Shown: positions 4,173-49,973, counted from the first letter of the stretch. The stretch is 51,424 bases of DNA from a virus (IMGVR_UViG_3300033486_000003:1-51424), one strand, 5' to 3'. Notes: a model not told the origin generated them from the letters alone. A program made the numbers and translations.

Positions 4173-4354
4173 CTCAATACCCCCCGTGAATCCATCATTT
4201 TGGCCTTCAAAAACCCAATATTTTCAAGCTCTGCCATGGCCCTGTTTCTCCCCCGTATGTCATCCACCGTTTTTAACCTCACAGGCCTTTTCTTTGCGCC
4301 CCTAATCTCATCCATTCGCCGCTCTCGCCAGCGCATGACATGCTCATCCATCAT
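4169..4354 (-). CDS. Hypothetical protein
   Basis: ATGA overlap with the helicase stop. Confidence 0.55.
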   Translation of the reverse strand: MMDEHVMRWRERRMDEIRGAKKRPVRLKTVDDIRGRNRAMAELENIGFLKAKMMDSRGVLR

Positions 4355-6915: not shown

Positions 6916-7296
6916 AATCACAGGCTCCTAATCATAAGTTTTTGTTTATGGTTCGCTAGAAAATCATAATCAATAGCCTATCGAATCTCCGGGGCAATAC
7001 TTCCTCTTGAGCCTTTGGGTGATTGGTATCAATCAGGCTCTTTTCCTTCTCGCTATTGATGATTTTCGCAAAAATCACCGCTGTTTCCGTTTGTGCATTT
7101 GTTCGGAACGCTATTCCCGGTATATGGCAGGAGCGTCACCCTGGATCGTGAATCACCACTAACCCGATTTTAACCTCGCCGTGCTGGTTACGGTCTGGTT
7201 GCCCCGGCTCACAAGGGCTGCACAAACTGGATGTTCCCGTGGATTACTCGCCACCGTTGGTCTACCCGTCCGAGTGCGATGATTGCTTATGATGTA

Positions 7297-10146: not shown

Positions 10147-10341
10147 ATGTTAATACTAGGACGAAGAGTCGGAGAAACGATAGTAATAACCCTGAACATT
10201 GGTGATGAGAATGAGGTGAATATAAGGTGTGCGGTTCTCGGCGTAAAAGGGAATCAGGTTCGCCTTGGGATTGACGCACCGAGCAGCGTGGCCGTGCATC
10301 GTGAAGAGGTGTATCTGCGCATCAAGGAGGAGCAGAAATGA
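10147..10341 (+). CDS. csrA: Carbon storage regulator CsrA/RsmA homolog
   Basis: [12 protein letters not shown]...[28 protein letters not shown]. Confidence 0.93.
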
Positions 10342-10799
10342 CCGACAACATCACTCCTATTCATTTTTGCCCCACCTGCTACAAGATGGTGTCTCGTATC
10401 ACGTCAACGACCACGGGGGGCTTCATGTGTAATAGCTGCGGAAGCGACACCGAGACCATCAGTAAATTCCACGCAATGCGGGGAAAAGACGCACGCAGAG
10501 CGCTAGCATGGAGAGGGTTTTCCGAGTCTGGCGTAGCCGAGCCAATTACTGAATCATTGTACTTTTCTGACGTAATCGAGTTATTGCGGGATGAACTAGA
10601 ATCCGGATCAGATAACAGCAAAACCGTAATGCGAATGTTGCGCGCTGGCATGAGGGATTACCTCGATCAATGCCGTGACCTCGACGAAGATGCCGCTACA
10701 GAAAATGAGGAAGCCCGCCTAGACCGCTGCCAGCGTAGCCGAGACCTGCGCGCCGAGATTGCGCGAACCACCGAAAGCCTTTATGGGGTGAAATCATGA
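10338..10799 (+). CDS. Hypothetical protein with N-terminal Zn ribbon
   Basis: CPTC...CNSC; ATGA-coupled. Confidence 0.7.
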
Positions 10800-11581
10800 G
10801 AATTGAAATAAAGACCAGATTCACAGGGATCGTATTGTTTTCGCACGAAACAGAGAACAATACACTCAAAATAACACTGGAGGCCGCAATAAAAGCCCGT
10901 GCCAACCTGGACGGTGCCTACCTGGACGGTGCCAACCTGGACGGTGCCTACCTGTCCCGTGCCTACCTGGCCGGTGCCAACCTGTCCGGTGCCTACCTGT
11001 CCCGTGCCAACCTGGCCGGTGCCTACCTGTCCCGTGCCAACCTGGACGGTGCCTACCTGGACGGTGCCAACCTGGACGGTGCCTACCTGGACGGTGCCAA
11101 CCTGGACGGTGCCAACCTGGCCGGTGCCTACCTGTCCCGTGCCTACCTGGCCGGTGCCAACCTGTCCGGTGCCTACCTGGACGGTGCCAACCTGTCCGGT
11201 GCCTACCTGGCCGGTGCCAACCTGTCCCGTGCCTACCTGGCCGGTGCCAACCTGTCCGGTGCCTACCTGGACGGTGCCAACCTGTCCGGTGCCTACCTGG
11301 ACGGTGCCAACCTGGACGGTGAAGAAAAACTGATCGGAGACAGGCCAATAATTCAGATCGGTCCCATCGGATCTCGGAGCGCTTATTTCGTAGCGTACCT
11401 AACTGACCGAGGAGTTAGATTTAGAGCTGGTTGTTTCTTTGGAGATAGGGCGAGATTTGAGGAAAAGCTATCAGATACTCACAACGGTATTCATCTGCGC
11501 GAATATCAAGCAGCCCTTGCGATGGTCGATGTTCACGCGGAGCTGTGGACTCCAAAGGAGAATAGCAATGAGCAAGCATAA
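10796..11581 (+). CDS. Pentapeptide-repeat protein
   Basis: 28 A[N/Y]L[D/S/A][G/R] repeats; C-terminal GPIGSR...RAGCFFG domain. Confidence 0.9.
   Translation: MRIEIKTRFTGIVLFSHETENNTLKITLEAAIKARANLDGAYLDGANLDGAYLSRAYLAGANLSGAYLSRANLAGAYLSRANLDGAYLDGANLDGAYLDGANLDGANLAGAYLSRAYLAGANLSGAYLDGANLSGAYLAGANLSRAYLAGANLSGAYLDGANLSGAYLDGANLDGEEKLIGDRPIIQIGPIGSRSAYFVAYLTDRGVRFRAGCFFGDRARFEEKLSDTHNGIHLREYQAALAMVDVHAELWTPKENSNEQA
10901..11320 (+). repeat. 28 x 15-bp coding tandem repeat
   Basis: Unit GCC(A/T)ACCTG(GA/TC/GC)C(G/C)GT. Confidence 0.95.
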
Positions 11582-16856: not shown

Positions 16857-17464
16857 AATCTTGCAAAAAGTGAGGAGAAATAAAGCCAAAAACAGAATTC
16901 CATCGTAAAACATCGACTGGCGATGGATTGCAGCCTAACTGTAAGGAGTGTCGCAGCAAATATGGTGCCGCCCATTATGTGGATAACCGTGATGAGATAA
17001 AAGCCAAATCGGCCATATGGCGCGCGAATAATAAAGCAAGAGCAAAGGAGGTTTCGGCAGCTTCTCGAGCTAAAAACGCAGAGAAGATTAAATCCAGAAG
17101 CTCGGCCTATTACAAAAAAAATAGAGATAGGATTAGAGCCGGAAATATAGCTTACATTGTGACGCCAGCAGGAAGAGATGCGTGCAAACGCCGCGACCAA
17201 AACAGACGCGCCCGTGAGCGTGAAGCTGGTGGAAATCTGTCAAAAGGCTTGGCTGAGCGCCTGTTCATGCTTCAGCGCGGTACGTGCGCGTGCGGATGTA
17301 ATCAACCACTTGGTGACAACTACCACCTAGACCACGTCATGCCGCTAGCGCTTGGTGGCTCAAATACTGATAACAATATTCAACTATTGCGCGAGGTGTG
17401 CAACCTGCAAAAACATGCAAAGCATCCGGTGGATTTTATGCGGCAACGGGGGTTTCTGATATGA
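16853..17464 (+). pseudogene. HNH homing endonuclease with an in-frame TGA at a Zn-finger Cys position
   Basis: GTG start gives MKSCKK*GEIKPKTEFH...CKEC; C-terminal HLDHVMPLALGGSN...N..CN..K. Confidence 0.75.
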
Positions 17465-18513: not shown

Positions 18514-18968
18514 GGATATTGGCGATAGACCCAGGGCCAGAGAAGAGCGCCTATGTCGTGATTGAGAACGGGGCCGTTATTGAGTTTGCAAAGCTTAAAA
18601 ATCATGAACTGATGGCGGTCGTGGAGTTAAGCCAGAAGATCGGCTATAGAGTTGTGATAGAAATGATTGCTAGCTATGGGATGAGTGTCGGAGCCGAGGT
18701 GTTTGAGACGTGCGTATGGATAGGGCGCTTCATCGAAGTCACGAAAGGAGATGCCGACAGGATCTTCAGGAAAGATGTGAAGATGCATCTTTGCGGAAAC
18801 ACCCGCGCCAATGATTCCAATATCCGCCAAGCACTGATTGATCGCTACGGACCAGGCAAGGAGGCGGCTATAGGCAAGAAGTCGTCCCCAGGCCCACTAT
18901 ACGGCGTCAGCGGCGATGTTTGGGCGGCGCTGGCTGTGGCGGTGACGTATGAGGATGGTTGCAAATAA
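18510..18968 (+). CDS. RuvC-like Holliday junction resolvase
   Basis: ILAIDPG...VVIE...DVWAALAVA. Confidence 0.75.
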   Translation: MRILAIDPGPEKSAYVVIENGAVIEFAKLKNHELMAVVELSQKIGYRVVIEMIASYGMSVGAEVFETCVWIGRFIEVTKGDADRIFRKDVKMHLCGNTRANDSNIRQALIDRYGPGKEAAIGKKSSPGPLYGVSGDVWAALAVAVTYEDGCK

Positions 18969-19015
18969 GGATTGGCGGTCGTACAATATTTTGAACGTCT
19001 AGCGCGAGATTCCCA

Positions 19016-19822
19016 ATGTTAGGAAATGTTCTGATAACTGGCGGCTCTGGGTTCTTCGGAAGAGCCATGACCAAGCACCTGCTTGAGAACGACCTGGCAG
19101 ACAAGGTGTGCATATTCAGCCGCGACGAATATAAGCAATCGGTAATGAGAAGAGAATTCCGAGACGATCAGCGGCTTAGATTCTTCATCGGCGACGTTCG
19201 CAACCCAGAGCGAGTAAAGCGGGCGATGCGCGGGATTGATACAGTGATCCATGCCGCCGCCCTAAAGCGCATAGAAACCGCCCATTACAACCCCGAAGAG
19301 CTGGTTGAAACCAATATCAACGGAACCATCAACGTGGTCCATGCCGCCGAATCCATAGGGGCGATCTGTGTTTTCCTCTCCACAGATAAGGCTTGCGAGC
19401 CGAAAAGCGATTACGGATACAGCAAGGCCCTGGCTGAGACAATAGCGCTTGGAGCCGGAGCGGTAGTTACTAGATACGGAAACGTGGCCGGTTCGACAGG
19501 TAGCGTTATACCTCTGTGGCGGTCGATGCGGGCAATAGTCCCCGTAACCGATCCTGAATGTACCCGCTTCTTCATGACAGAACAGCAGGCCGTTGACCTT
19601 GTGATCAAGGCCGCCACTGACAAAAATACAACCGATGTCATAACCCCCGTATTGCCCGCTTACAGACTGGCCGACCTTGCTGAAGCCATGGGCAAGTTCA
19701 TGGAGGTGAAAGGTCTACCCTACTGGGAAAAGAAACACGAGAGTATGCGCCCCGGCGAGACAAGCGAACAGGCAAGGCGCATGAGCGTTGAAGAGCTGAG
19801 AGAGGCGCTGAAGTATGTTTAA
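19016..19822 (+). CDS. pseB: UDP-GlcNAc 4,6-dehydratase (PseB/FlaA1-like)
   Basis: ITGGSGFFG, SRDEYKQ, HAAALK, STDKA, YGYSK, RYGNVAGSTGSVIP. Confidence 0.88.
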   Translation: MLGNVLITGGSGFFGRAMTKHLLENDLADKVCIFSRDEYKQSVMRREFRDDQRLRFFIGDVRNPERVKRAMRGIDTVIHAAALKRIETAHYNPEELVETNINGTINVVHAAESIGAICVFLSTDKACEPKSDYGYSKALAETIALGAGAVVTRYGNVAGSTGSVIPLWRSMRAIVPVTDPECTRFFMTEQQAVDLVIKAATDKNTTDVITPVLPAYRLADLAEAMGKFMEVKGLPYWEKKHESMRPGETSEQARRMSVEELREALKYV

Positions 19823-20441
19823 CCCCCACCAAGTAACACGAGACTTTGAGGAGGCTATTTGCTCTTACACTGGAGCGCCTTATGCAGTGGCGGTAAACAG
19901 CTGTACCATGGCGTTGCTGTTAGCGATTAAGTGGCATGTAAAAGACCTTCATTACACTCCATGCGTAAAAATACCAAAACATACCTATGTATCAGTTCCG
20001 CAATCTATTTTCCATGCGGGAGGAAAAGTTAAATTTATTGATCATGAATGGGAAGCCGCTTATAGACTCAATCCGTTTCCAGTGTGGGATTCTGCGAGAT
20101 GGTTCACGTCAAATATGTACAATGCATTGACATGGGGTGGCGGTATTGGAATGGTCTGCGTCTCATTCCACGCAAGCAAAACACTTGGCATCGAGCAAGG
20201 CGGCGCAATACTCCACAACGACCCAGAGGCTGACAAGTGGTTTCGTAAAGCGCGATTCGATGGTAGAACTGAAGGCGTCGAACCAAAAGACGACACCTTC
20301 GACATGATTGGCTACCACTGTTATCTAAACCCATCAATAGCGGCGCAGGGGCTTTTGAAGTTGGCATCCTTGCCGAGGCATAACGCACCGCTACCGAATA
20401 GCGACTATCCGGACCTTTCAAAAATGGAAATCTTCAAATGA
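19815..20441 (+). CDS. pseC: DegT-family PLP sugar aminotransferase (PseC-like, short)
   Basis: AVAVNSCT.AL, DSA, SFHASK (PLP Lys), GGAI; only 208 aa. Confidence 0.75.
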   Translation: MFNPHQVTRDFEEAICSYTGAPYAVAVNSCTMALLLAIKWHVKDLHYTPCVKIPKHTYVSVPQSIFHAGGKVKFIDHEWEAAYRLNPFPVWDSARWFTSNMYNALTWGGGIGMVCVSFHASKTLGIEQGGAILHNDPEADKWFRKARFDGRTEGVEPKDDTFDMIGYHCYLNPSIAAQGLLKLASLPRHNAPLPNSDYPDLSKMEIFK

Positions 20442-20752
20442 ATGTAGAAATGATCATCGACAAACGCGAGGGGATGGTGATTCAGCGGTTCAAGCACCCC
20501 GTCGAAGAGGTGGTTTATGAGCCACAGAACGCCATCGACGTGGCCCGCGCTATTACTGACGCCGCCTTTGAGGCCCGAGACGGCATGAAGCCCGTTGGCG
20601 ACACCCTGAAAGCCGAGCTAGTGGAACGCCACAGATTCACGCTGACCAATCGACTGGCATTGATGCTTGGGACTCTGCGCCGCGACAACAAGAAGACAGA
20701 CGGACAGGTGGCGCAGGCGATGGTAGAAGCTTGCTTAAAAGAGATTTTCTGA
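20438..20752 (+). CDS. Hypothetical protein inside the sugar operon
   Basis: Translationally coupled on both sides. Confidence 0.7.
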   Translation: MNVEMIIDKREGMVIQRFKHPVEEVVYEPQNAIDVARAITDAAFEARDGMKPVGDTLKAELVERHRFTLTNRLALMLGTLRRDNKKTDGQVAQAMVEACLKEIF

Positions 20753-21336
20753 TGACCTGCATAGCCATTATTCCAGCGCGTGGGGGCAGCCGTAGAATTC
20801 CCAAGAAGAACATCCGCATGTTTCACGGCAAGCCGATCATCGCTTATTCGATTGAGGCGGCTAGAAAGTCGGGGGTATTCGATAAGATTGTGGTCTCCAC
20901 TGACTGCCCCGATATTGCAGAAGTCGCTATTCAATACGGGGCGGATGAGATTCACTATCGTGACGAATCCAGTTCAAGAGATGAAGTCGGAACTCAAGAA
21001 GTGGCGAGAGTCGTTCTGGCTGATTATCCGGACTTTGATTATGCGTGTGTGATTTATCCTTGTGCGCCGATGCTCTCGCCCGACACCCTTAAAAGGGCCA
21101 AGTTAGTATTTGATAATTTTGGATATACTGAATATGTCGTTCCGGTTGGAAATTGGCTACAAGACCCTGGGCAATTCTATTTTGGAAAAGCGCTTTCATT
21201 CTTCGAAGAACTACCGCTTCTTGGGCCGTACACCAGACTACTTCCAATAGACCCAAAAACAGACTGCGACATAAACACCATGGAAGATTGGGAACGAGCA
21301 GAACGCATGTACACCGAACTGAAGGAAAAATCATGA
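20752..21336 (+). CDS. pseF: CMP-nonulosonic acid synthetase (PseF/NeuA-like)
   Basis: IAIIPARGGSRRIPKKNI..FHGKPIIAYSI...VSTD...D.GQFY...DINTMEDW. Confidence 0.88.
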   Translation: MTCIAIIPARGGSRRIPKKNIRMFHGKPIIAYSIEAARKSGVFDKIVVSTDCPDIAEVAIQYGADEIHYRDESSSRDEVGTQEVARVVLADYPDFDYACVIYPCAPMLSPDTLKRAKLVFDNFGYTEYVVPVGNWLQDPGQFYFGKALSFFEELPLLGPYTRLLPIDPKTDCDINTMEDWERAERMYTELKEKS

Positions 21337-21902
21337 GCAAAGAGTGGTGGGCAGGGGACTTTGGAAACTCCTACACGAAGAGGAACCGGGTTGATTGGCA
21401 ACTGCGCTCCTTATTTTGGAATCACGTTATTTGCACAACGGGGGTGCGCAGTGCGTATGAGATAGGATGTAATTGCGGCTGGAACCTATCTGCCATCAAA
21501 CTAAGAACACCCTATGTTTGCGTTTCCGGCGAGGACGTAAACGAATCGGCCTTGGATCAAGCGTATGCCGCTGGCCTTGAAGTTTATCACGCCAACGCTG
21601 GCCATCACGCAACGGCAGAACTGGTGTTCACTGCCGGAGTGTTGATCCATATTCCGCCAGAAGAATTGAAAGAGATGATGCTGCGAATCATAGACATGAG
21701 CTGTGATTACGTTCTTGCCGTGGAGTACGCCGCCGACAAAGAGGAAGAAGTCGAGTATCGCGGCCACGCCGGGAAGCTGTGGCGTAGGCCGTTTGGGAAG
21801 CTGTACCAGGAGATGGGGCTGGAACTGATCGAAGAAGGCAAGGTCGGGGCCAACCAAGGCTTTGACGATTGCACCTATTGGTTGTTGAGGAAGCCAGCAT
21901 GA
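21333..21902 (+). CDS. Pseudaminic acid biosynthesis-associated methyltransferase
   Basis: W.GDFGNSY..RN, EIGCNCGWNL, LVFTAGVLIHI, EVEYRGHAGKLWRRPF. Confidence 0.8.
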   Translation: MSKEWWAGDFGNSYTKRNRVDWQLRSLFWNHVICTTGVRSAYEIGCNCGWNLSAIKLRTPYVCVSGEDVNESALDQAYAAGLEVYHANAGHHATAELVFTAGVLIHIPPEELKEMMLRIIDMSCDYVLAVEYAADKEEEVEYRGHAGKLWRRPFGKLYQEMGLELIEEGKVGANQGFDDCTYWLLRKPA

Positions 21903-22936
21903 TTCGCTGCAAAACCTGCTGTATGCCTGCTACTCGCCCTGACACCCCCTTCGTTGATGGAGAGTGTCAGGCGTGCATAAACTACCGGAACCGGAAGAAT
22001 ATCGACTGGGATGGCAGAAAGAAAGAGCTTGAAGCGCTGCTTGATCGGCACGATCGGCGGGTAATTGTACCGAGTTCGGGCGGGAAGGATTCTCATTTTC
22101 AAGTGCTGAAATTACTAGAGTACGGCTGTGATGTAACTATCGTTACAGCTCGCACCTGCCACTTAACCCCTATCGGTCGGCAGAACATCGACAACCTGGC
22201 GCGGTATGCCAGAACCATCGAGATAGTTCCAAATATGACGGTCCGGGCCAAGCTCAACCGGCTGGGGCTGGAGATGGTAGGAGACATAAGCTGGCCTGAA
22301 CACGCTTCAATATTCACCACTCCACTACGCGTGGCCGCCGATCTTGGCATCTCCTTGGTGATGTATGGCGAATGCCCGCAACAGGAATACGGCGGCCCCC
22401 AGGGCAGCGAAGAAGCCAAGCAAATGACCCGCCGATGGGTTACAGAGTTTGGCGGATTCCTTGGCTTGAGGCCATCCGATTTTGTCGGTATCGAAGGTAT
22501 AACCGCTAGAGACATGGCCGACTACGAGCTACCGAAAGGGCTTGAGGATAAGGGCATAGAGGCGCATTTCCTTGGGCAATACCTGCCGTGGGATAGCCAT
22601 CACAATGCTGAGGTGGCAAAGGCGCACGGGATGAGAACGCTTCCCTTACCTCCCGCGCCGTCTAATTGGTGGTTTGCCGAGAACTTAGATAATGCCCAAT
22701 GTGGTTTGCACGACTACTTCGGCTATCTGAAATATGGGTATGGCCGTGGGTGCGCACAGATCAGCATTGATGTTCGTGCTGGCCGCATCTCAAGAGGTGC
22801 CGCGATGAACTGGGTTACTCACAATGACGGCAAATATCCAGCAGTTTACGCGGGAGTTAGGGACGAGTACATATTGAGCCGGATAGGGCTGGATCAGTGG
22901 CGTATTGATGAATTGATAGAGAAGTTCAAGTGTTAG
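21899..22936 (+). CDS. N-acetyl sugar amidotransferase (WbuX/PseA-like)
   Basis: CKTC.MP.TRP...CQAC, PP-loop SGGKDS, HDYFGYLKYGYGR. Confidence 0.88.
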   Translation: MIRCKTCCMPATRPDTPFVDGECQACINYRNRKNIDWDGRKKELEALLDRHDRRVIVPSSGGKDSHFQVLKLLEYGCDVTIVTARTCHLTPIGRQNIDNLARYARTIEIVPNMTVRAKLNRLGLEMVGDISWPEHASIFTTPLRVAADLGISLVMYGECPQQEYGGPQGSEEAKQMTRRWVTEFGGFLGLRPSDFVGIEGITARDMADYELPKGLEDKGIEAHFLGQYLPWDSHHNAEVAKAHGMRTLPLPPAPSNWWFAENLDNAQCGLHDYFGYLKYGYGRGCAQISIDVRAGRISRGAAMNWVTHNDGKYPAVYAGVRDEYILSRIGLDQWRIDELIEKFKC

Positions 22937-23673
22937 CAATCCGCGTAATCCCCCAGCTCCTATGCCGTGGCCGCCAGCTGATCAAGGGCGAACGGTTTGA
23001 CTCGTGGCGCTCTGTTGGTGTGGCCGCACAGGCTGTTAGGGTCCACCAGATGCGCGGCGTTGATGAGTTGATGCTACTGGATATATCCGCCACCCCTGAA
23101 GGCCGCAGCCCCAATCTGGAGCTGGTTAAGGAACTGTCTGAATCGTTCTTCATGCCGCTGGCGGTAGGTGGTGGAGTATGCAGTTTGGCCCATGTTCGTG
23201 AACTACTCCGCCATGGTGCCGATAAGGTCGTGATCGGAACCTATGCCATCGAACACCCAGTAAAGTTCGCAGAGCTGGCCGAGGCGTTCGGGAATTCCAC
23301 CTTCGTCGTCTCGATAGATGTTCGTGACGGGCATGTGGTGACGAGGTGCGGGACCAACGAGTTGACCGGGTTAACCCCTGTCGAGTGCGCCAAGATTGTG
23401 GAAGAAGCCGGTGCCGGTGAGATAGTCATCAACAGCATCAACCGAGAAGGAACCATGCAGGGCTACGATCTCGACCTGATTAACTCTGTTAGCAATGCTG
23501 TCAGCGTCCCGGTGGTGGCCGCTGGTGGCTGCAAAGACTACGAGGATATGTACCACGCCATCCAAGCCGGTGCCAACGCCGTGGCGGCTGGTGCGCTGTT
23601 TCAGTTTACCGACTCCACTCCAAGAGGGGCGGTTAAATATCTGCATGAGAAGGGGGTCAATGTAAGGCTATGA
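22930..23673 (+). CDS. HisF-like cyclase subunit (WbuZ-type amidotransferase partner)
   Basis: RVIPQLL, DELMLLDI, MPLAVGGG, GADKV, GAGEI..NSINREGTMQGYD. Confidence 0.85.
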   Translation: MLAIRVIPQLLCRGRQLIKGERFDSWRSVGVAAQAVRVHQMRGVDELMLLDISATPEGRSPNLELVKELSESFFMPLAVGGGVCSLAHVRELLRHGADKVVIGTYAIEHPVKFAELAEAFGNSTFVVSIDVRDGHVVTRCGTNELTGLTPVECAKIVEEAGAGEIVINSINREGTMQGYDLDLINSVSNAVSVPVVAAGGCKDYEDMYHAIQAGANAVAAGALFQFTDSTPRGAVKYLHEKGVNVRL

Positions 23674-24068
23674 GATTGGTAGACGCCTACTGTGTTGATG
23701 ATCCGTGGATTTTATTCGAGCTGTTACAGCAGCGCACGCCTCAGCAGTCTATTTCCCACAAGGAAATGCCGACCTACAAGCAACATTGCGACTTCTTCTA
23801 CTCAAAGCCGTACGCTCACTGGTATTTGATCAAGAAAGACGGGGAATACATAGGCGGAATTTATCTTACAGGAATTAGAGAAATAGGGATTTCTATAATT
23901 CAGAAACACCAGGGCAACGGATATGGAAAGGTCGCCGTTAAATTGCTGCTGGAGCTTCACCCTGGCCGCGCCCTGTGGAACGTCAATCCTGAAAACGAGA
24001 GATCAATAGCCATGGCAAAATCGCTTGGCGGAAAACTGATCCAATACACCTTCGAGATACCAGCATGA
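23670..24068 (+). CDS. GNAT acetyltransferase (PseH-like)
   Basis: EIGISI...HQGNGYGK acetyl-CoA motif, N..S. Confidence 0.75.
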   Translation: MRLVDAYCVDDPWILFELLQQRTPQQSISHKEMPTYKQHCDFFYSKPYAHWYLIKKDGEYIGGIYLTGIREIGISIIQKHQGNGYGKVAVKLLLELHPGRALWNVNPENERSIAMAKSLGGKLIQYTFEIPA

Positions 24069-25021
24069 AAACACCTTTCATCATTGCTGAAATGTCGGCT
24101 AACCATCTTGGTGATTTTGAGCTGGCCAAGGCAATCATCGAGGAAGCCGCTAAAGCCGGTGCCGACGCCATCAAGCTCCAGACCTTTACCCCGGAGCAGA
24201 TGGTTGGCCCGCTCGATTATGTCGTGAAGACCGGACCATGGGCGGGCCATAAGCTGATTGACCTGTACCGGCAAGCACACACCTCACGCGAATGGCATAA
24301 GCCACTGTTCGACTGCGCCGCCAAGCTTGGAATCGAAGCATTCTCGACGCCGTTTCACCCTGATGACGTGGCCTTTTTGGAGACTCTAAACTGCCCGAGA
24401 TATAAGATTTCCAGCTTTGAGATTACCGATCTGGAGCTGATCAGGGCTGCGGCAGAGACGGGGAAGCCACTGATCATATCGACTGGAATGGCAACTACTA
24501 ATGAAATACTAATTGCTCAAGATTTAGTAGTTGAGATTAGTGGCGTGGTTCCGACATTCTTGAAATGTACCAGCGCATATCCAGCCGATGCTTCATCCGC
24601 GAATCTATCCGCCATGGGTGATGACTGGTTATTCGCCGGGGTATCAGATCACACCATAGGAATCGGTGTGGCTGTCGCGGCTACCGCACTTGGGGCGAAG
24701 GTGATCGAAAAGCACCTTTGCCTCAATAGATCATACGGTGGACTTGATGCCGGGTTTTCTATGGAGCCGCACGAGTTCAAACAGATGGTAATTGAATGTC
24801 GCCGAGCCGCTGCCGCCGTAAGCGGAAAAGGCGATAAAGCGGAAGAAATGACCGAGATGCGTCGCTCACTTTGGTTTGCAGAAGATTTGCCAGCCGGTAC
24901 ACAGATCGAGCGCCGCCACCTGAAAGTTGCACGACCAGCAGGCGGAAGGAACCCAGGCGATCTATCTTTGGTTGTCGGGCTGACCTTGAAACATGACGTA
25001 AAAGCCGGAGACCCCGTCTAA
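24065..25021 (+). CDS. pseI: Pseudaminic acid synthase (PseI/NeuB family, with SAF domain)
   Basis: IIAEMSANHLG, GADAIKLQT, KISSFEITD, STGMA, KCTSAYP, SDHT, IEKH. Confidence 0.9.
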   Translation: MKTPFIIAEMSANHLGDFELAKAIIEEAAKAGADAIKLQTFTPEQMVGPLDYVVKTGPWAGHKLIDLYRQAHTSREWHKPLFDCAAKLGIEAFSTPFHPDDVAFLETLNCPRYKISSFEITDLELIRAAAETGKPLIISTGMATTNEILIAQDLVVEISGVVPTFLKCTSAYPADASSANLSAMGDDWLFAGVSDHTIGIGVAVAATALGAKVIEKHLCLNRSYGGLDAGFSMEPHEFKQMVIECRRAAAAVSGKGDKAEEMTEMRRSLWFAEDLPAGTQIERRHLKVARPAGGRNPGDLSLVVGLTLKHDVKAGDPV

Positions 25022-25212
25022 TGAGCGTTGACTGGTTCAGAGTCATCAGCGATCTACAACGTTCTGGCCTGACCTACAAGCAGCAGGCCAAAGAGGTTGG
25101 CATAAATTCTGCCGGAACAATTTACTATTGGAAGTGCGGCAACCAACCGCCACATGACAAGGGGGAGAAACTGCTTGACGTTTACAGATCAGTGGTAGGA
25201 TCTACCTCGTAA
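25021..25212 (+). CDS. Small HTH protein, candidate late-gene regulator
   Basis: DWFRVISDL...AKEVG...YWK.G.QP.H..GEKL; last gene of the early arm. Confidence 0.65.
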   Translation: MSVDWFRVISDLQRSGLTYKQQAKEVGINSAGTIYYWKCGNQPPHDKGEKLLDVYRSVVGSTS

Positions 25213-28790: not shown

Positions 28791-31700
28791 TTATTCCTTC
28801 GGTTTTCTAATCAGGAAGTAACGGGCGTCAAATGGGCTTTCCATCTCTTCTTCGCCAGTATAGAGGTCCATGGCGTAGCCGCCGGTGATGTTCAACTGAG
28901 CAAGGCCGGGGATGCCTGCTGCATAACCGGCGGTCATCATGGCGTGTTTCATGAACTTATCTGCCTCGCCCTCGCCCGCAAGCAGCTTCGCCCCAGTGTC
29001 GCCAGTTATTACAAGTTCCTTGCCAACGGAAAGTAGCGGTGAACCTTCAAATCTGTGGCCGGTATCCAAGGAACTGGCGACTTCTCTTGCAACCGGAATT
29101 CCCGCGAACAGGTAAGCAATGGATTTGCCAGCCGCCCATTCTGCGTAACATCCATCGTCATCCTCTTCGCATTTAGGGAACCTACCGGCGAGAAGTTCAG
29201 AAAGCGTGGCCGCCATAATGACAAGCGTGAACGTTCTCAACCCCGCGTCGAGTTTACGGTGAGCTTTCAATACCTCGTTTTCGCTTTTAGCATCTCTGAG
29301 TATTGAGGTTAGTCGTCCGTGATATGTGGCAAAGTAGCTGAAGAACAAAGTCACGAATTGCAACGACGCGGCACGTTGAGCGGCGTTAAGGTCTTTCACT
29401 CCCCCAGAGCCAAGAGAAAGACGAACGATCTTGTCAGCATGTGCAACCGCTTCGGTTTCAGTAAGCTCTTGGTCTATGGCCCAACGATAAGCCCCTGTCC
29501 AGGTCGGGATGGCGATTGACATATCCATATAACCGATGTGCTTCATTGACAGCAGTCGGATGAAGTCCATGATTCCTTGCTTTCCTATCGCCCGTTCAAA
29601 ATTTTCCCTAATGTTTCTATCAAAGCTGTTGACGCGATTATTCATCTGCTCCGATTTGCTGAACACGAATTTTGCAGACTGGAACGGATGGCGGGTAAAT
29701 TCGCCGACTCCTTTTCTGAGATACCCGACTCCCATCACTTGGTTTTCTGCGCTGCGCTGACGGAATATCTCCATGGATGCGGTGATACCGGCAAGCTGCG
29801 CCGACGCTGTTGTGTACTTAAAGCCCATTGCGACAAGCGATATATTGCGGCGAAGTTTCCCAAGCCACTTACCCCACCACCTTGCCCCAACATCATCGGT
29901 AACGGCTCGACCGTTGGCGACAGCGTGCGCCCAACTGGTGAACTGGTTGTAAGCATCCACGCCGAGTTTGTCTTTGATGATCCCTTGAACTTTACGGTTG
30001 CTCAAAAGCTTCCAAGCATCACGAAGCGCTTTCTTGTGGCTGATCAGGTGGGAAACTTCGGATAGGTGCTGTGGGATGATAGACAGCCCACCAGTCAACA
30101 GTATTTGTCCAGCCGCGCCAGTGATGCGCTTCTTTGTGAAACCATCGGCTACCTTGGGCCTAAAGAATCCCGTCTGCCCTTCGACGGCTCCGGCTTTTGC
30201 TTCGGCCTGCTTTAGTCCTGCGGCTGAGGAGCGGGGATCATAGATAACCGGGAAGTACCCGCCCTTTAATTGCTGGCCCGACGGAGTGGTAAAGGGGCGC
30301 GGCTCAACTCCCTTCGGAGCTATCCCGGTAATGCTGCGCTCAACTTCAACGATCTGCGGCCACAACTCCCCGATGGCATCCCATATTCCCTGAACGGCTT
30401 CCCACTCTTTAGCGGTTAGATGGCTGACGATTTCTCGAACCTGGTCATCAGTCCAGCCATAACCATCTTTCAGCTTAAACTCATTTGACTCATTCCCGAA
30501 ATTCAGCGCCATGGTCATTATCGCTTCGACGCTTAACGACTGGCTCTTGCCGTCGATCTTCGGCAGGCTCTTTATCTCGTACTGCTGCATCAGGCGTTTG
30601 CCATCAAGGCCATCTAGCATTTCGACTATCTTGTAAAGGGCGTTGGCGTCTATCTTGTTTCTAGCGTTTTCGGCTTGGGCCATTGGCTCGAAGATGTACT
30701 TTGCAAATGGGCCATTCGGTATCCCACCGTCCAGAAACTGCGCCAGCTGCTCAACCTTCACCAGTGGTGCATTGAACCCACGCATCGTCTCCCCGGCCTT
30801 CTGGAGCATCGAGAGAGTGGCTTTGTCTATCGGGTTGGGGACTCCTTTCGGAATGGCCTTGTCTGCTACCGTCTCCATCTCGTTAATGGCATCTTCGAGG
30901 GCTATCCGCTCTTCGCCTGCGATCAGCTCTTTCTTGTTCCGGCCAACTGCCGCCAACATGCGGACAGTCTCATACAGCCCTTCAAGCTCTTCGATGGTCA
31001 GCTCTTTGTAACTCTTCTTGTCGGTCAGCACCCATTCTGGAATGTCGGTGAATTCGGTTATCTCGCCATCCTCTGCCAGTTGGCGGACGTGCTCCTTGAG
31101 GTCAATGTCTTTGAGCGTGACGGATTTTCTAAGGTCATATCTCCCTAGTAGCTCAACGATGGCTTCCTGCTCGTCGGGGTCGATGCGCTTCAGGTATTCC
31201 GGTTTCTCGAACTTCTTGAAGTAGGCAAGGGCCTTCTCGTTGTTCTGTTGGGCTTCGATAGCAGCGCGGTACAGGCGGCCACTTAGCAGCTGGTCGCGCT
31301 TGGCTTGGGCGGCAAGTTCAGAAGCGGGTCTTCCGCCGCGCTCCTTTATGCGCTCTTCTGCCCTAGTTTTTGCTTCGGTCGCTTTTGCTATGGCGTCTTC
31401 TTCAGACAGGCCTTTTTTAATCTTCGCCGTGTAAACGGTTTTGTATGCCGTTTCCGGCTCTTTCAGTGACTTGTAAGCGTTTCGCGCATTCCTTGCTGCT
31501 CGACTTGCCGCCGCCAGGTATTGCAACGGCTTCAGATCGCGAACCTTCATCTTGGCGATACGTTCGCGGGCGTACTCGTCAGAAGCCTTGAGCAACATCT
31601 TCAGGTTGCCGACCTTCTTGTCCAGCTTGGCCAGCTCAGTGGCTACCATTCTGGTATGCGCTTCGTTGTGAATGGCGTCGTTGGCCGCGTCTTCGATGGC

Positions 31701-34700
31701 TTGTGGGTCAGAAAGGTCGGCGTGTTCTTCCAGCATTCGCTGGTCTGTGATGGATTCGATCAAGGTATCCATCTTCTCGGCTTCGAGCAGTGCGTTTACC
31801 AGCGCATCACCAGACGAGAAGCCAAACCATTCGGCAACGGCATCGGGATCAAGCCCGCCCTTCTCAGTGCGCCAGCCATAGCGCCCTGTTGGCATGTACC
31901 GCCACTTGGCGGCAGGGGCGTCACCGTATTGAGCCTTGAGCGCCTCACTAGAGAGTTTGGTGGTGGTTAATCCTGCCTCGGTAATTCCTCTCCGTGCATC
32001 GCGGTTAAGCCCTTTCAAGTCGGCCAGTTCGCCATGAGACAAGAACCGCATGGCTTGGTATACGGGGCGGTTTCTTACCTCTGCATCTACTTCGGCCTTA
32101 ACTCCGGCGCGAACCTCCTTACCGGCCGCCTGAAGGCGCTTCATCTCTTTGCTCTTGGCGTTGTCCAGCCACTTCAAGTCTCGAAGGCTGCGGCGCTCCA
32201 GCTTTTCAACCGCGTCATCGGTCTGGGCGGTAACGGTGTCTTGGTACTTCTGCCACTCTTCTTCGTTGGTGAATTCTTCTCTGGTAAAGAGTGGAATGAA
32301 CGATCTTGCTTTCTGAGTGGCTGCAATCTGCTCATCTGAGGCAAGCATCCGATCAAACACGCTGCGAACCTCGGGGGTGATCTTCTCGGGGGAGAGATAG
32401 TCTTTGATGTTCTGGTAGACTTGATTCAGCCATGCCCGGTAAGTTCTGAACAGGGACTTCATCCCTTCGCTTGGGGCTTTGCCCTCAAACAGATAAACCT
32501 CAAACGCTTCCGCTACCTTCTCATGCCCGGCGCGGCGCTCTTCGATGGACATTGAATTCCACTTGTCGAGCGATTCAACACCAACAAACGAAAGCAAAGC
32601 AGCCATGTCGGCCTTCACTTTTTCCGGGGCATCCGGGCGGCTGGATATGTCTTTGTAGACTTCGAAGAAGAAGTGCCCAGTCTCATGCAGGACGGTTGAT
32701 AGATCAGCGCCTTCAAATAGTGATATGACCGATGGTGCTTGAGTGATGTCTTCGGCCATGGAAATTTGGCCACGGCGCTGCTGACGAAGAATGTTAGGGT
32801 CTTCTGGGGAGAAGGTGCCGATGTTGTCTGTTGACTTAATCTGCTTAATATCCAAAACGGCGAGTGACGAAGATCTATCGCTTTCGGCAAAATAAATTCC
32901 ATCGTATGGAATCGCATTACCGTCTAACCATTTCCTTAATTGTGGCTCCATCGTCCAAAACGGAAGCGCCCCACGATCTGATCCAGCGGTTGCGTATGAT
33001 GGAGCACTTGTCTCATCAAGAAATCTGTTCCATAAACGGATACCTTCATTCCTTGATGCCTCAAATGGTTTTTCGGCTTTAACGTAGATAGAGAAAACTT
33101 TTCCGCCACGGCCATATAATTCCGCGAACTCTTTTTCCTCAGTGGTAAAGATTAACGCTTGATCACTAAATGCTTCAGCGTTTTCGTGCATGCTTCCGCG
33201 ATACATAACCAATGGCCTGCCCTGATCATCCACCACACGACTATCAGCAAACCACTTCCAAAAGTTCCGCAGCGCCTCTTCCGTCTGCGCAATAGGCTGG
33301 CCCTTGCTGTTCGTCGTCGGGCGCTCTACGCCGTTGATGGTGATTGTTGGGGAGATGAATTTCTCCCCGGTTTTCTGATATAGCGTTCCACCCGCCACCG
33401 TTTCCCCGGGAGGAGGGGTCGGTTCGGCGGATGGCGGGGGAACTCTGAATTGAAGGCCGTAGCGTTCATAGACTTCGTGGGGCATGATTCCCAGTTCTTT
33501 GCCCATGACGATGGAGAAGGCCCGATGTAATTCGGCTTTCTGAGCGGCGGCGCGTTCGTCAAACTTTCCGGTACTGGTGATCTGCTGGGTAATCTGGTCC
33601 CGTACCTGATCGGCGCTGGCGATTATTGGGTCACGCTCTTCTGTCTCTGCGAGAATTTCGTCAGCGCGGGCCTGAAGCTTTTGGCCATACTCCTGCTCAA
33701 ACTTTTCGGCTTGAGCTGGTGTCGGGTCGTCGGGGTCGGTGCGGATGTGCTTGGAAAGCGCTGCGTGATGTTCGGTAGCGGCGATCTTTGAGGCGTAATC
33801 CCCCATGGTCATTCTGAGATCACCACCAGAAGCCACGGCTTCATCGAACTGTTCGGCTACTCCCGGAATTTCGCTGGCCACTTGGCGCGGATCAACCCCC
33901 AGCTCTTGGAAGTATTTAGCGAACTCGCGGGCCTCGATGTAGACCTCTGGGGTTTCCATTCCATCAACGAATCGTTTCAGGTCTTCGGGGGAACGCTTTC
34001 CTAGTTTCCCTTCTTTGGCGGCTTGGCCTACCTGCTCCATCATCGCAGCAGTGGCTTGTGCCTGTCTTGCGGCGGCGGCGTCTCGCACGATGTTAGCGGC
34101 ACCTGGATCGGACAATGCAGCAGTGGCAATATCAACAGGCGCGGTAGTGAACTCACCAAAGAATTCGAGCATCTGTTCTGCAAGACTGATATTTTCTCCA
34201 ACTGCTGCCGCAGAGGCGGTGGCACCAGCAGCACCAGCTACACCCTGCTTCACGGCTTCGGCGGCAACTGTTCCCGCCTTCTTCAAGCGGGTAGTACCAA
34301 CCGGTACAGGGGCAAAGGCAAATGCCGCATTCACCGCGCCTTCGACAACTGATTTGATACTCGCCCTACCGGCAGCGGCTTCTGGTGTTAGCCCTCTACT
34401 AATACCTTCGGCCATCTCTCCGCCAAAAGTCATTCCAGCATTAGTCCCAAATTGAAGTGCCGCCATAGGAACGGTGGCGGCTACATAGCGTTTCACTGCT
34501 TCATTAGTGAGTCTGTCGGTTACCGCCTTTCGGATGGGGGAAACAGCAAAACCGGCGGGGACTCCAAAGGCCGTCAATGGTGCTACCTGTTCGGCAAAGA
34601 GAACACCAAGAACACTAGGATTCTGCGCGAGATATGCCATGCCCTCGCCAATGCCACCCATGGTGGTGGGCTGCTGTTCGACGACGGAGGCAAATTCCTT

Positions 34701-47058: not shown

Positions 47059-48689
47059 TTATATCTCCTTGCGGTGAGAGGCTCGCGGCCCGTTTGTACG
47101 TTGTTTGTTATGCCGCGCTTTTTGCGGTCGTTTGAGTGCATCCATTCCAGCGCGTGAGTTGTTTCCTTGGGGCCTGCCCACCAGGCCATTACCACGGCGT
47201 CGGCTTCGTCTGGCGAGAATCCTAACTTTGCCTTTACCCCGCCGCGCACTTTCCCGACCGTGTCATATTTAACTTTTGGCTCAACTTTTATCCCCTGATG
47301 AGATGCCTCAAATGTCGGTGCTGTCAACCCCGCCAATAGGCGATTATCAGGTGGCAATGAAATCGGCGAACCTCCCGATTGGTTTGGGTCTAGCGCCTCA
47401 CGAAACAGCCAGTACGCCGCGCTACGCACGTTCGGAAATGGTAGGCTTCCATCTCTGGATCGGCGCGTAGTACCTTCACTTCCCTTATATCCAATCGTCT
47501 CTATTTCATTGTCTTTCAGATGCTCATATAGAGGGCCGCCATACCCGCCGCCAAGGTCAACCACGATCAGCGCCTGATCCCGTCGCGTGGCCAGCACCAA
47601 GCCCGCTGCATACGCTCCGGCCTTGTCTTGCGGAATATCTTTCCCTGGCGTTTTGATGAACGGAGCGTACCAACCATCATAGCGAGGAGCCTGAACCATG
47701 GGGTCATCACCACCGCCAGAACAATCAACGCCGATTGCGCACATAGGTACATTTTGTGGCGGAGTGTCAGTCCAACGAGCCATGGCGGCGCGTACCCATT
47801 CTGTTGGGATACATTGATTTGCGGCGTCCTTCATGCCTGCCGTAAATTTTCCATACAGCAACTGGGACCGCAGCGGCTCTGGCAATGACTGCAATTGGGC
47901 GCGGTATTCTGGCGTATTTCGATATGGATTATCTTCAAGGCTGGCGGGTATAAAAGTGTAGGACTTGGCTGTATAGAATTCGCCATCTACCTCGTATTCG
48001 CCAGGCCCTTCAACCCACACCATCTGCCCTTCGCCGTCTCGCGTCACATAGACTGCCCAGCGCAATTCACCGGGGCTGGCTGGATTGGGAAATTTATCAT
48101 CAAGCCAAGGGGCGAACCATTTAAGCAGCCACAACCCATCCGTGGTGCGAGGAGGATTTGAACCCAACACAACGCGAGTTCGTTTGCCAGGTGGGGCGCG
48201 TAACCACGCAATGATCTGCGCAATCTGCATTTCAAGGAACTCGCCAGCCTCGTCAAATCCCATGTAGTCGCGTTCACGGCCGGCGTGATCTATCCAACTA
48301 TCCGGGTCTTTCATCCCTGCGAGTTTGATGGTTTTACCATTTGGCCAGGTCCATTCCAAATCCTGACCATTGAAGCTGGCTACCGATCCAATAATCTTTT
48401 TTCCTTCTTTCTCAAGGCCGTCGGTTTGGGTTCTTTCGCGGCGAAAGATGATGCCGCTATCTGATTCATTAACGGCCCACCCTAATTCAAGATGAGTTTT
48501 GCCGCCGCCTGCCTGACCTCCGTACAGAAGCACATCGGCCCGTGACATATACGCATCGGTCTGAGGTCCGGGGTTAGGAAGCCACTTCATTTTCTTGGTG
48601 GCCTCGACGGCCTGATGAGCCAATTCAGCACGCTGCTTTTCAGGCAGTGCGCCGAGTCGGCTTATCATTTCGTCGAGAACGTTGGACAC
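47055..48689 (-). CDS. terL: Terminase large subunit
   Basis: YGGQAGGGKT Walker A, FDEA Walker B, IGVD nuclease motif, SPDEADA. Confidence 0.92.
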   Translation of the reverse strand: MSNVLDEMISRLGALPEKQRAELAHQAVEATKKMKWLPNPGPQTDAYMSRADVLLYGGQAGGGKTHLELGWAVNESDSGIIFRRERTQTDGLEKEGKKIIGSVASFNGQDLEWTWPNGKTIKLAGMKDPDSWIDHAGRERDYMGFDEAGEFLEMQIAQIIAWLRAPPGKRTRVVLGSNPPRTTDGLWLLKWFAPWLDDKFPNPASPGELRWAVYVTRDGEGQMVWVEGPGEYEVDGEFYTAKSYTFIPASLEDNPYRNTPEYRAQLQSLPEPLRSQLLYGKFTAGMKDAANQCIPTEWVRAAMARWTDTPPQNVPMCAIGVDCSGGGDDPMVQAPRYDGWYAPFIKTPGKDIPQDKAGAYAAGLVLATRRDQALIVVDLGGGYGGPLYEHLKDNEIETIGYKGSEGTTRRSRDGSLPFPNVRSAAYWLFREALDPNQSGGSPISLPPDNRLLAGLTAPTFEASHQGIKVEPKVKYDTVGKVRGGVKAKLGFSPDEADAVVMAWWAGPKETTHALEWMHSNDRKKRGITNNVQTGREPLTARRYK

Positions 48690-49471
48690 TATTCGGCCCT
48701 TACCTCATTCCCGGTCTTGCCCATCGTCGGCATGATCCAGGTCTGGGTTGTGATCCATGTATCAATCATGTACTTCAAATCATCCAATGCGCCTGCCAAG
48801 AAAGCGGATTCGTTATTAGCCTGTTGCGCCCGCTGATCTGCGGCGCTCTTTCGCGCCAGCAACTCGTTGCGCCGGGCGGTTAGTTTGACCATCATCGGGG
48901 AGTTTTCCGAAACTCCATACATATAGGCAGGCTGGAGAATATCAGACTCAGGCGGAACCGTGACCTTGATGCCGCGCTGTACTGCCAATGTGATGAAATA
49001 CTGACATCCAGCACGCTGATAGCCGTACTCCTCATGAGCGGACATATCGACACCCCACATACCGATCTCAGTAACTCCTGGGGTTTCGAGAGCCATAGCC
49101 CACATCCATGAGAGAGATGAGGTGAAAAAATATGGACCGTATTTTTCCATCAGTTCATTAATCGGGATAGCCCGCGCATTCGGAATCTCAATAGGAAGAT
49201 TTAGGTCCATGTGAGGCGTTTCGCCAGCCATAAATACCGGACCTTTGAATCGAGTCAGGAACTCGACGTACTCGGGGGTGAACCATGCCTGTCCAGTACC
49301 GAGATGTCCTGGAATCTGTGGTTCCCACCGATGAGCCTCAAACCATGCATGAGCATGAGGGCCTGCGTAAGCATACGCTCCAGGAGAGCACCCCCAAATC
49401 TGCCATTCTGGATCACCGTAGGGAGCCAATCGTACCGAACTTGGGGCGCTTCCAATAAGTGCTATTTTCAT
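48689..49471 (-). CDS. Candidate glycosyltransferase (Maf/GT42/GT29-like motifs)
   Basis: KIALIGSAPS at the N-terminus, FTSS...MA, EIGMWGVDM; GGAGGAGG RBS before ATG 49471. Confidence 0.55.
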   Translation of the reverse strand: MKIALIGSAPSSVRLAPYGDPEWQIWGCSPGAYAYAGPHAHAWFEAHRWEPQIPGHLGTGQAWFTPEYVEFLTRFKGPVFMAGETPHMDLNLPIEIPNARAIPINELMEKYGPYFFTSSLSWMWAMALETPGVTEIGMWGVDMSAHEEYGYQRAGCQYFITLAVQRGIKVTVPPESDILQPAYMYGVSENSPMMVKLTARRNELLARKSAADQRAQQANNESAFLAGALDDLKYMIDTWITTQTWIMPTMGKTGNEVRAE

Positions 49472-49493: not shown

Positions 49494-49973
49494 CTATGTT
49501 GATGTTGAAAGTGTAAAACCGCTGGCTTGTGACGATGTACCACTCGTCAGGCCAATGGCCAGCCACATTGATGTGGTCATCCCTACCAGTGAAATGGCAC
49601 CGCCAAGACTGGAAATTTTTACAGTCGTAAATGATGATCCGACTGTGCTGACGATTGTCTCACTGTTCGCCGTTTTTACATAAACAGGACCGTTATCAAT
49701 CGGGCCGCAAATGACTTTGCTAACGCCTGGTACTGGAGGATCGAGAGTATATACCGCACTCGATGCCGCGCTAGTGCCGGGCAAATAGCTATACCCATAC
49801 GGATCGACATTTGCAGATGTGGAATCATCAGTTGACGTTTCCAATCTGATGTCCTTCGGTCCGACAATAAAATCCATCGTCCCTTTCCCGCCTGTTTGCT
49901 TTGTGCTGGCCACCTGCAATCCTAGTCTTCGACCGTGGACGCTTGTGGTCATGTACAGCCATTTGTATGACAT
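49494..49973 (-). CDS. Ser/Thr-rich putative virion protein
   Basis: About 30% Ser+Thr by manual count; beta-rich pattern. Confidence 0.65.
   Translation of the reverse strand: MSYKWLYMTTSVHGRRLGLQVASTKQTGGKGTMDFIVGPKDIRLETSTDDSTSANVDPYGYSYLPGTSAASSAVYTLDPPVPGVSKVICGPIDNGPVYVKTANSETIVSTVGSSFTTVKISSLGGAISLVGMTTSMWLAIGLTSGTSSQASGFTLSTST

Follow-up and report, generated by a model that had tools for sequence, protein, structure and literature searches.

A phage operon for a pseudaminic-acid-type sugar with acetamidino and methyl tailoring genes, and its possible use on the virion

Why does a phage carry genes for building a sialic-acid-like sugar, and on what is that sugar placed? The question is raised by a block of nine genes at positions 19016-25021 of the virus record IMGVR_UViG_3300033486_000003 (the window, i.e. 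the whole stretch of 51,424 nt that was analysed, which is one complete IMG/VR virus record with a genome of ~51.3 kb). Nonulosonic acids influence how phages, immune systems and lectins recognise bacterial surfaces, and retaining ~6 kb (12% of the genome) to make one implies that its use is under strong selection. A coat on the virion would bear on phage stability, adsorption and immune visibility; alternatively, the sugar could allow rapid rewriting of host receptors. Our analysis makes it very probable that the block is a biosynthetic operon. The complete statement, i.e. that a working operon makes a modified CMP-nonulosonate during infection and that this sugar is destined for the phage's own virion proteins, is put forward tentatively and with somewhat more doubt than confidence.

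Nine coupled genes and the enzymes they encode

The nine open reading frames (ORFs) follow one another on the + strand and cover 6006 nt (~11.7% of the genome), with all junctions overlapping by 1-8 nt (ATGA, TGATG, GTGTTAG etc.). None of the genes contains an internal stop, and the GC content of the block (0.51-0.54) is the same as that of the remainder of the genome. An earlier reading made from the sequence alone (the sequence-only reading) had proposed nine translationally coupled genes, about 12% of the genome, in the phage's own transcription unit, and had assigned a family to each gene. The ORFs were found where it had placed them, on the + strand with every junction overlapping, the transcription unit is the phage's own, and a check against Pfam and NCBIfam profiles agreed with its list gene by gene. 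Its description of the genes as compact applies mainly to the PseC-like protein (208 vs ~375-380 aa) and the PseB-like protein (268 aa).

CMP-pseudaminic acid is made in Campylobacter jejuni and Helicobacter pylori by the pathway PseB-PseC-PseH-PseG-PseI-PseF, and PseA makes Pse5Ac7Am. The phage PseI scores 344.2 bits against TIGR03586, over the cut-off of 340.25, and only 238.3 bits as NeuB; it aligns over its full length with C. jejuni PseI (8h2c, 216.5 bits). The best hit of the PseF-like protein is TIGR03584 (178 bits vs a cut-off of 205.7), and Pfam places it in CTP_transf_3. For the PseB-like protein the best NCBIfam hit is TIGR03589 (236.9 bits vs a cut-off of 407.75, covering profile positions 6-270 of 324), and it matches H. 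pylori FlaA1/PseB (2gn4) with an E-value of 1.8e-51 over chain positions 23-287 of 344 residues; its NAD(P) motif TGGSGFFG, its DK and its YxxxK align with those of 2gn4, and the protein ends ~55 residues short at the C-terminus. The small GNAT protein belongs to Acetyltransf_1 (38.2 bits, Pfam) and is presumed to perform the PseH step, a role assigned from its position in the operon only. Some of the conserved residues that we treat as catalytic in these enzymes are presumed to be so. Among the PseI-like proteins there is also a subgroup of ~280 aa (P0180, P0189 and others) that lacks the C-terminal SAF domain and is 61-65% identical over 75-83% of the query.

The aminotransferase scores 78.5 bits against the Pfam DegT family and 47.2 bits against the PseC model TIGR03588 (cut-off 423.5), and aligns to H. 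pylori PseC (2fn6) only at chain positions 37-63 and 155-247. Its SFHASK aligns with the motif of 2fn6 that holds the lysine for pyridoxal phosphate (PLP), and K122, D92, S117 and T31 are invariant in 44 aligned sequences; presumably the lysine holds PLP, the aspartate serves the pyridine nitrogen, and the serine and threonine bind the phosphate. An AlphaFold2 (AF2) model has a pLDDT of 96.2, and Foldseek lays it on the PLP domain of GDP-perosamine synthase, ArnB and PseC (TM-score 0.64-0.69 by query, ~0.39 by target). This mini aminotransferase has 3091 relatives, the best 120 of which are all 199-249 aa long. Only the PLP-binding domain is present, and because the PLP lysine and the aspartate are conserved, the protein probably acts like PseC without being its equivalog.

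A second mini-DegT subgroup, at 32-39% identity, comprises five IMG/VR loci (L018, L022, L023, L030 and L032) and one marine alphaproteobacterial record (L040). In the phage contigs of this subgroup the neighbouring genes include UDP-glucose-dehydrogenase-like, B12-radical SAM, carbamoyltransferase and epimerase genes (Pfam on L018, L022, L023, L032 and L040), and in L040 the gene lies inside a Wzy/GT2/GT4 O-antigen-like locus. These loci look like another uncharacterised sugar pathway, and as the distant subgroup occurs in other nucleotide-sugar contexts, the short form is a general variant of sugar aminotransferases.

The amidotransferase triad for acetamidino sugars is WbuX/WbuY/WbuZ. The phage WbuX scores 200.5 bits against TIGR03573, just under the cut-off of 203.2, and its WbuZ/HisF-like partner scores 231.2 bits against TIGR03572 (cut-off 299.7) and 229.4 bits against NF038364, both under the cut-off, with 201.8 bits as HisF and 193.6 bits against His_biosynth (Pfam). 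The methylase, at 112.2 bits against TIGR03587, is just over the cut-off of 112.05. The orphan, which has the motif DTLKAELVERHR, is a conserved member of the operon; its 37 relatives from metagenomes are 100-120 aa long and belong to no Pfam family. Its AF2 model (pLDDT 82.8) is a beta-hairpin with three helices, for which Foldseek against the PDB returned nothing at E <= 0.001, the VIA wide search returned only generic helical hairpins (Z <= 6.6) and ESM Atlas scores were <= 0.75. A predicted complex of the mini aminotransferase with the orphan, in which the orphan would stand in for the missing C-terminal domain, scored 0.00 and is uninformative either way.

The profile and structure searches establish the identities of the enzymes; the order of their steps and the product we infer from the established Pse (pseudaminic acid) pathway. 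The PseB-like dehydratase would act on host UDP-N-acetylglucosamine (UDP-GlcNAc), and the sugar would then be aminated by the minimal one-domain PLP aminotransferase, N-acetylated by the GNAT protein and released from UDP, either by a host PseG or by a substitute that escaped recognition, after which PseI would condense it with phosphoenolpyruvate and PseF would activate it with CTP. WbuX and WbuZ would turn one acetamido group into an acetamidino group, using free ammonia or a host glutaminase, and methylation would follow. The predicted product is a CMP-activated pseudaminic-acid-type nonulosonate with an acetamidino group, probably N-methylated. Its transfer to virion proteins would fall to an enzyme outside Pfam, for which the best candidate is a 260-aa protein encoded next to the gene for the large terminase (TerL).

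The operon stands at the end of the early/middle block of the window, after recombination and DNA-methylase genes. The promoter-like site before it (Table 1) is weak evidence only, and such sites are rarer in the whole region than in shuffled sequences. The helix-turn-helix (HTH) gene that follows pseI has a homologue directly 3' of pseI in L002, L004, L009 and G011.

Table 1. Positions of the operon genes and of associated features in the window
Feature	Position	Strand	Remarks
Exact 127-nt repeat	1-127 and 51298-51424		'direct terminal repeat' of the record
Promoter-like site TTGCAA-17-TACAAT	18959..18987	+	9/12 consensus matches; 47-nt gap before first gene
PseB-like UDP-GlcNAc 4,6-dehydratase (inverting)	19016..19822	+	268 aa
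Single-domain (mini) DegT PLP aminotransferase, PseC-like	19815..20441	+	208 aa
Orphan	20438..20752	+	104 aa
PseF-like CMP-pseudaminic acid synthetase (cytidylyltransferase)	20752..21336	+	194 aa
Pseudaminic-acid-associated methyltransferase	21333..21902	+	189 aa
WbuX/PseA-type N-acetyl sugar amidotransferase (PP-loop ATPase)	21899..22936	+	345 aa
WbuZ/HisF2-like amidotransferase partner	22930..23673	+	247 aa; GTG start
Small GNAT N-acetyltransferase	23670..24068	+	132 aa
PseI pseudaminic acid synthase with SAF domain	24065..25021	+	318 aa
HTH protein	25021..25212	+	63 aa; coupled to pseI; phrog_16553
Conserved enzyme-like protein	48689..49471	-	~260 aa; directly upstream of TerL
Protein adjoining the 260-aa gene	49494..49973	-	159 aa; no family

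Conservation and descent of the operon

With PseI or the mini aminotransferase as query we collected 38 IMG/VR loci, 13 of which hold at least six of the nine genes at 45-67% identity and mostly in the same order. The TGGSGFFG, DK and YxxxK motifs of the PseB-like protein are kept in the homologues of 7/7 relatives. Across the nine complete relatives the motifs of PseF and PseI are kept (the PARGGS of PseF is exact in six, and its P-A-R and final S are kept in all nine), as are the PP-loop SSGGKDS and the two N-terminal Cys pairs of WbuX (9/9); the acetyl-CoA motif of the GNAT protein, Q/RxxGxG/A, is likewise kept in nine relatives. The methylase, with its glycine-rich motif, is found in six of the nine complete relatives and is absent from the other three, and is therefore optional.

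A second set of relatives was reached through TerL: from 66 IMG/VR TerL loci, contigs of ~37 kb or more were taken on, and 11 relatives are at least 90% complete. Five of these 11 carry pseI, i.e. all four with a TerL identity of at least 61%, plus one at 48%. In ten operon-bearing genomes the pairwise identities of PseI, PseF and WbuX track those of the major capsid protein (MCP), portal and tail-tube B (Spearman 0.51-0.88) and do not track those of TerL (Spearman 0.15-0.31), a comparison that is descriptive only because the genome pairs are not independent. TerL occurs in two types, which are ~48% identical among phages with capsids 78-93% identical.

In each of the nine complete relatives the packaging/head genes directly follow the operon in the same orientation, whereas in the window phage the operon is on the opposite strand from the packaging genes and ~24 kb away. 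The closest relative, G011 (L118-L120; TerL 80%, MCP 81%), has the structural genes and the Pse operon in common with the window and no detectable early or replication gene, a contrast that reflects an extreme degree of module exchange in this clade. The same gene set, in another order, is also carried by a separate phage lineage (TerL 27%).

Neither of two weaknesses that the sequence-only reading had named for itself was seen. The catalytic motifs are conserved in relatives and not degenerate, and the identities of 45-67%, together with the co-divergence with structural genes, speak against a fragment recently taken from a host. Judged from these comparisons, the operon is not a recent host fragment and is old within this phage lineage. 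The central claim of that reading, that acetamidino (WbuX/WbuZ) and methyl tailoring genes form part of an intact, selected pseudaminic-acid-type phage operon, stands.

A search of 50,697 phage records with PseI gave three weak matches only. With the mini aminotransferase as query, a scan of genome contigs gave only two records, both from marine alphaproteobacteria (single-cell or metagenome-assembled genomes), at 34%, in one of which the gene lies in an O-antigen-like locus, and the best named relative of PseI is from Marinomonas (53%). Neither of these relatives identifies the host of the phage.

The possible destination of the sugar

Virion proteins are favoured as the destination because a near-complete pathway would be redundant in a Pse-making host, because the operon travels with head and tail genes, because a co-inherited enzyme lies in the packaging module, and because the phage has no integrase. 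The support is circumstantial only, i.e. the co-divergence with head and tail genes and the co-inherited candidate beside TerL, and it makes virion glycosylation plausible.

The candidate, the 260-aa protein, is encoded in all nine complete operon-bearing relatives and in three partial ones, and in none of the five complete operon-less relatives (hidden Markov model (HMM) search); for a sixth operon-less genome, G021, the absence is by tblastn only. In the TerL-derived set of 11 the operon and the 260-aa gene are both present in five and both absent in six, with no discordant case. Its alignment contains dozens of invariant polar residues, many of them D/E/H/C/R, as would be expected of an enzyme. 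At E <= 0.001 the family has 4296 clusters; among its best 80 IMG/VR loci, 31 have at least 8 kb upstream, of which 25 hold at least four Pse genes and four hold none, and in two of those four a PseI-like gene lies elsewhere in the contig. The adjoining 159-aa protein has homologues in eight of the nine complete operon-bearing relatives and in none of six operon-less ones (tblastn). The genes upstream of TerL in operon-less relatives were uninformative, save for a GDPD/lectin-like protein in one. A 120-aa protein (41809-42171) was rejected as operon-specific, weak homologues being present in operon-less relatives.

The order of motifs in the 260-aa protein resembles that of the Maf and Cst-II-type nonulosonate transferases. 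Compared with a set of 15 alphaproteobacterial PF01973 members (Maf/MptE-like flagellin nonulosonate transferases), picked from the matches of the family search, it has in common the arrangement of its short motifs (G-S/x-x-P-S close to the N-terminus, A.A...G...I.L.G.D) and one aligned block of 24 columns; it is much shorter than the Maf proteins, whose open frames span 270-1219 aa, and has none of the Maf flanking domains. Its nearest named cluster in the ESM Atlas (score 0.79) carries PF01973 on 16% of members. The protein may be the missing transferase or may perform another missing Pse step, and we regard it as an open lead and not as a finding.

A number of results weigh against a working pathway that ends on the virion. 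In six-frame HMM searches of the whole genome neither PseG (TIGR03590) nor PseH (TIGR03585) was matched at E <= 10, and no class-I glutaminase (PF00117, HisH/WbuY) was found at E <= 1, in a search whose control was positive in 14/14 genomes. Pfam scans of the 78 phage ORFs contained no glycosyltransferase family, and 41 extra ORFs in the operons of relatives included neither PseG nor a transferase (Pfam); the extra genes interrupting those operons are HNH, Dam and B12-radical SAM genes, the rest being without a family. PseB, PseF, WbuX and WbuZ all score below the NCBIfam equivalog cut-offs. The lack of PseG fits a Pse-making host, which would itself supply transferases directed to its own structures. 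For the 260-aa protein there is no Pfam family of use (nine members and 30 of the 150 representative hits listed, picked by length) and no PHROG, its best hit in a PDB profile search is an unrelated protein (E 0.042), and it does not match the PF01973 HMM at E <= 10. Comparison with Maf-like domains by hhalign gave a probability of 3.3%, and with a 62-sequence alignment 23.6% (P 8.6e-4, 24 columns). The 260-aa family is also far larger than the operon-bearing clade. One 96%-complete record has the gene without pseI, and a cultured Microcystis phage, which is not among the PseI hits, has a 32% homologue before its terminase genes, annotated 'type 11 methyltransferase'. Moreover, the co-occurrence of the gene with the operon is confounded by ancestry, MCP identity being 66-82% in operon-bearing phages and 53-57% in the others.

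The sequence-only reading had the phage making its own activated sugar, which overstates the case: as none of the six frames contains PseG, a PseH-type match or the HisH/WbuY glutaminase, help from the host or unrecognised substitutes are needed. It had also preferred virion glycosylation over conversion of the host surface, and this preference is undecided by the data. The phage has no recognisable glycosyltransferase, and one operon-bearing relative (G013) has an integrase-like gene. Its observation that the phage has no wzx/wzy or integrase was confirmed, none being present in the Pfam scans of the 78 ORFs.

Remodelling of the host surface is the main rival, and we consider it possible although rather unlikely. 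Here an infected cell, or a lysogen, would be flooded with the tailored CMP-pseudaminic acid, which host PseG and host Pse transferases would put on flagellin, lipopolysaccharide or capsule, so that changed receptors exclude superinfecting phages or debris no longer traps progeny. The simplest reading of the absence of PseG, of a glutaminase and of a recognisable transferase is indeed dependence on a Pse-proficient host; besides the integrase-like gene of G013, the wider TerL group includes integrase-bearing members, and the divergent early region of the window holds an HTH_31 gene. There are also reported precedents, in the prophage enzymes EpaA/EpaB that change the Acinetobacter capsule by altering pseudaminic acid (PMC12053666) and in prophage O-acetyltransferases that act on capsule nonulosonates (PMC6586298). 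However, the phage has neither an integrase nor membrane-associated surface-polysaccharide genes (Pfam), a Pse-making host would need only the tailoring genes and not PseB, PseC, PseI and PseF, and the operon has diverged in step with the head and tail genes and, in 9/9 relatives, adjoins the packaging genes.

We think it very unlikely that the nucleotide sugar, or the flux into it, serves some other use, e.g. a drain on UDP-GlcNAc that stalls envelope synthesis, decoration of phage DNA, or modification of a secreted or internal protein. The position of the operon after recombination and DNA-methylase genes would suit such a use, as would the sugar contexts of the distant mini-DegT subgroup in marine phages. 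Against this, Pfam found no hydroxymethylase, thymidylate-synthase-like gene or DNA glycosyltransferase family in the phage, nine genes with CMP activation and two tailoring steps far exceed what draining a pool needs, and in relatives the operon is unlinked to the replication genes, which differ completely. Decay of a host-derived fragment, with truncated PseB and PseC and a missing PseG, is scarcely credible and already largely refuted. In its favour, the PseC-like protein has 55% of the usual length, the C-terminal end of PseB is missing and several proteins are under their equivalog cut-offs. Against it, the short aminotransferase has a great many relatives of uniform length, its PLP residues do not vary and its fold is predicted at pLDDT 96; no gene is interrupted by a stop, relatives at 45-67% identity retain the motifs, and the composition matches that of the genome.

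If the sugar does coat the virion, this would be the first phage known to have a sialic-acid-like sugar coat from its own pathway, and if the 260-aa protein is the transferase, a family of 4296 clusters without annotation would gain a function. A wider proposal, that a widespread freshwater/soil podophage clade coats its virions with acetamidino, N-methylated Pse by means of a streamlined, PseG-less pathway with the one-domain aminotransferase and of a new family of small, distantly Maf-like transferases encoded beside TerL, is speculative and in our view rather unlikely as a whole. Two features are curiosities of enzymology in their own right, i.e. a 200-aa sugar aminotransferase without the usual second domain that has thousands of relatives, and a Pse pathway without PseG.

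The phage and its comparison with known systems

By PHROGs and Pfam the window is a podovirus-like phage, with tail tubular proteins A and B, internal virion proteins, portal, MCP, small and large terminases, an endolysin and a holin-like protein with three transmembrane segments. The early region encodes a helicase, single-stranded DNA-binding protein, exonuclease, Gp157/Gam-like protein, DNA methylase, NinB, YbcO and a RusA-like protein. The large terminase is ~40% identical to TerL of Acidovorax phage AP1 and Bordetella phage BPP-1, and the region has no DNA-level match in cultured phages or E. coli genomes. Near-identical DNA occurs in four DNA sequencing runs, all from one wetland/freshwater study, with no RNA run among the matches listed. 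The repeat at the two ends is 127 nt long, a typical assembler k-mer length, and an ORF of ~416 aa (a phrog_1645-like virion protein) spans the junction of the record's two ends. Because of this overlap and the ORF across the junction, the record is probably a circular assembly and not a genome with true terminal repeats, i.e. the repeat looks like the assembly overlap of a circular or permuted genome.

Several other genes were noted in passing. An 856-aa helicase (4351-6921, - strand) contains, at residues ~39-323, an intein with Hint and LAGLIDADG homing-endonuclease domains, which precedes the ResIII/Helicase_C core. A 2171-aa polyvalent virion protein (28791-35306, - strand) combines LPD22 with an ADP-ribosyltransferase domain (ART-PolyVal) and is probably ejected to act in anti-defence or takeover. 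The opening region of the rightward early operon holds a CsrA homologue (72 bits; 10147-10341, + strand) and a 261-aa pentapeptide-repeat protein (10796-11581, + strand). Two HNH/endonuclease VII-like genes of homing type are present (42184-42732, - strand, and 16928-17464, + strand), one of them separating the gene for the major capsid protein from the structural gene that follows.

Set beside known systems, the operon is closest in content to the Pse pathway of Campylobacter and Helicobacter, with which it has in common enzymes of the PseB, PseC, PseI and PseF types, whose catalytic motifs align, as well as a WbuX/PseA-type amidotransferase and its HisF-like partner and a Pse-associated methylase. 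It differs in being phage-borne, in lacking PseG, a PseH-family match, a HisH-like glutaminase and a Maf or other known transferase, in its aminotransferase being the PLP domain only (208 aa), in its PseB being ~55 residues short, and in its added orphan gene. As in the WbuX/WbuY/WbuZ triad, wbuX and wbuZ are adjacent and coupled, and the PP-loop SGGKDS and zinc-ribbon cysteines are kept; unlike in the triad, there is no glutaminase subunit anywhere in the phage genome.

If virion glycosylation is right, the functional analogue is the virion glycosylation of mycobacteriophages described by Freeman et al. 2023 (Cell Host Microbe), in which the glycosyltransferases are reportedly phage-encoded and the sugar nucleotides come from the host; the present phage encodes the sugar pathway and no recognisable transferase. 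The operon does not resemble the module of a serotype-converting prophage, as Pfam scans of the 78 ORFs show no integrase, membrane glycan-modifying, wzx or wzy genes. In Acinetobacter baumannii the prophage enzymes EpaA/EpaB convert pseudaminic acid to 8-epi-pseudaminic acid, and are like the present system in being phage-borne enzymes acting on a nonulosonate precursor; they are reported to be two tailoring enzymes in a prophage that need the host K locus and have a proven capsule target (PMC12053666), whereas the operon described here is almost a whole pathway in a phage without an integrase.

The literature searched, with supplements and most subscription journals outside its scope, yielded no account of a pseudaminic acid pathway encoded by a phage; the sole trace is a table footnote of PMC6359870 that names pseI among marine phage auxiliary genes. 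The parts of the operon are known families. What is new is their assembly as a conserved phage module, together with the layout lacking PseG and a glutaminase, the one-domain aminotransferase and the linked 260-aa family.

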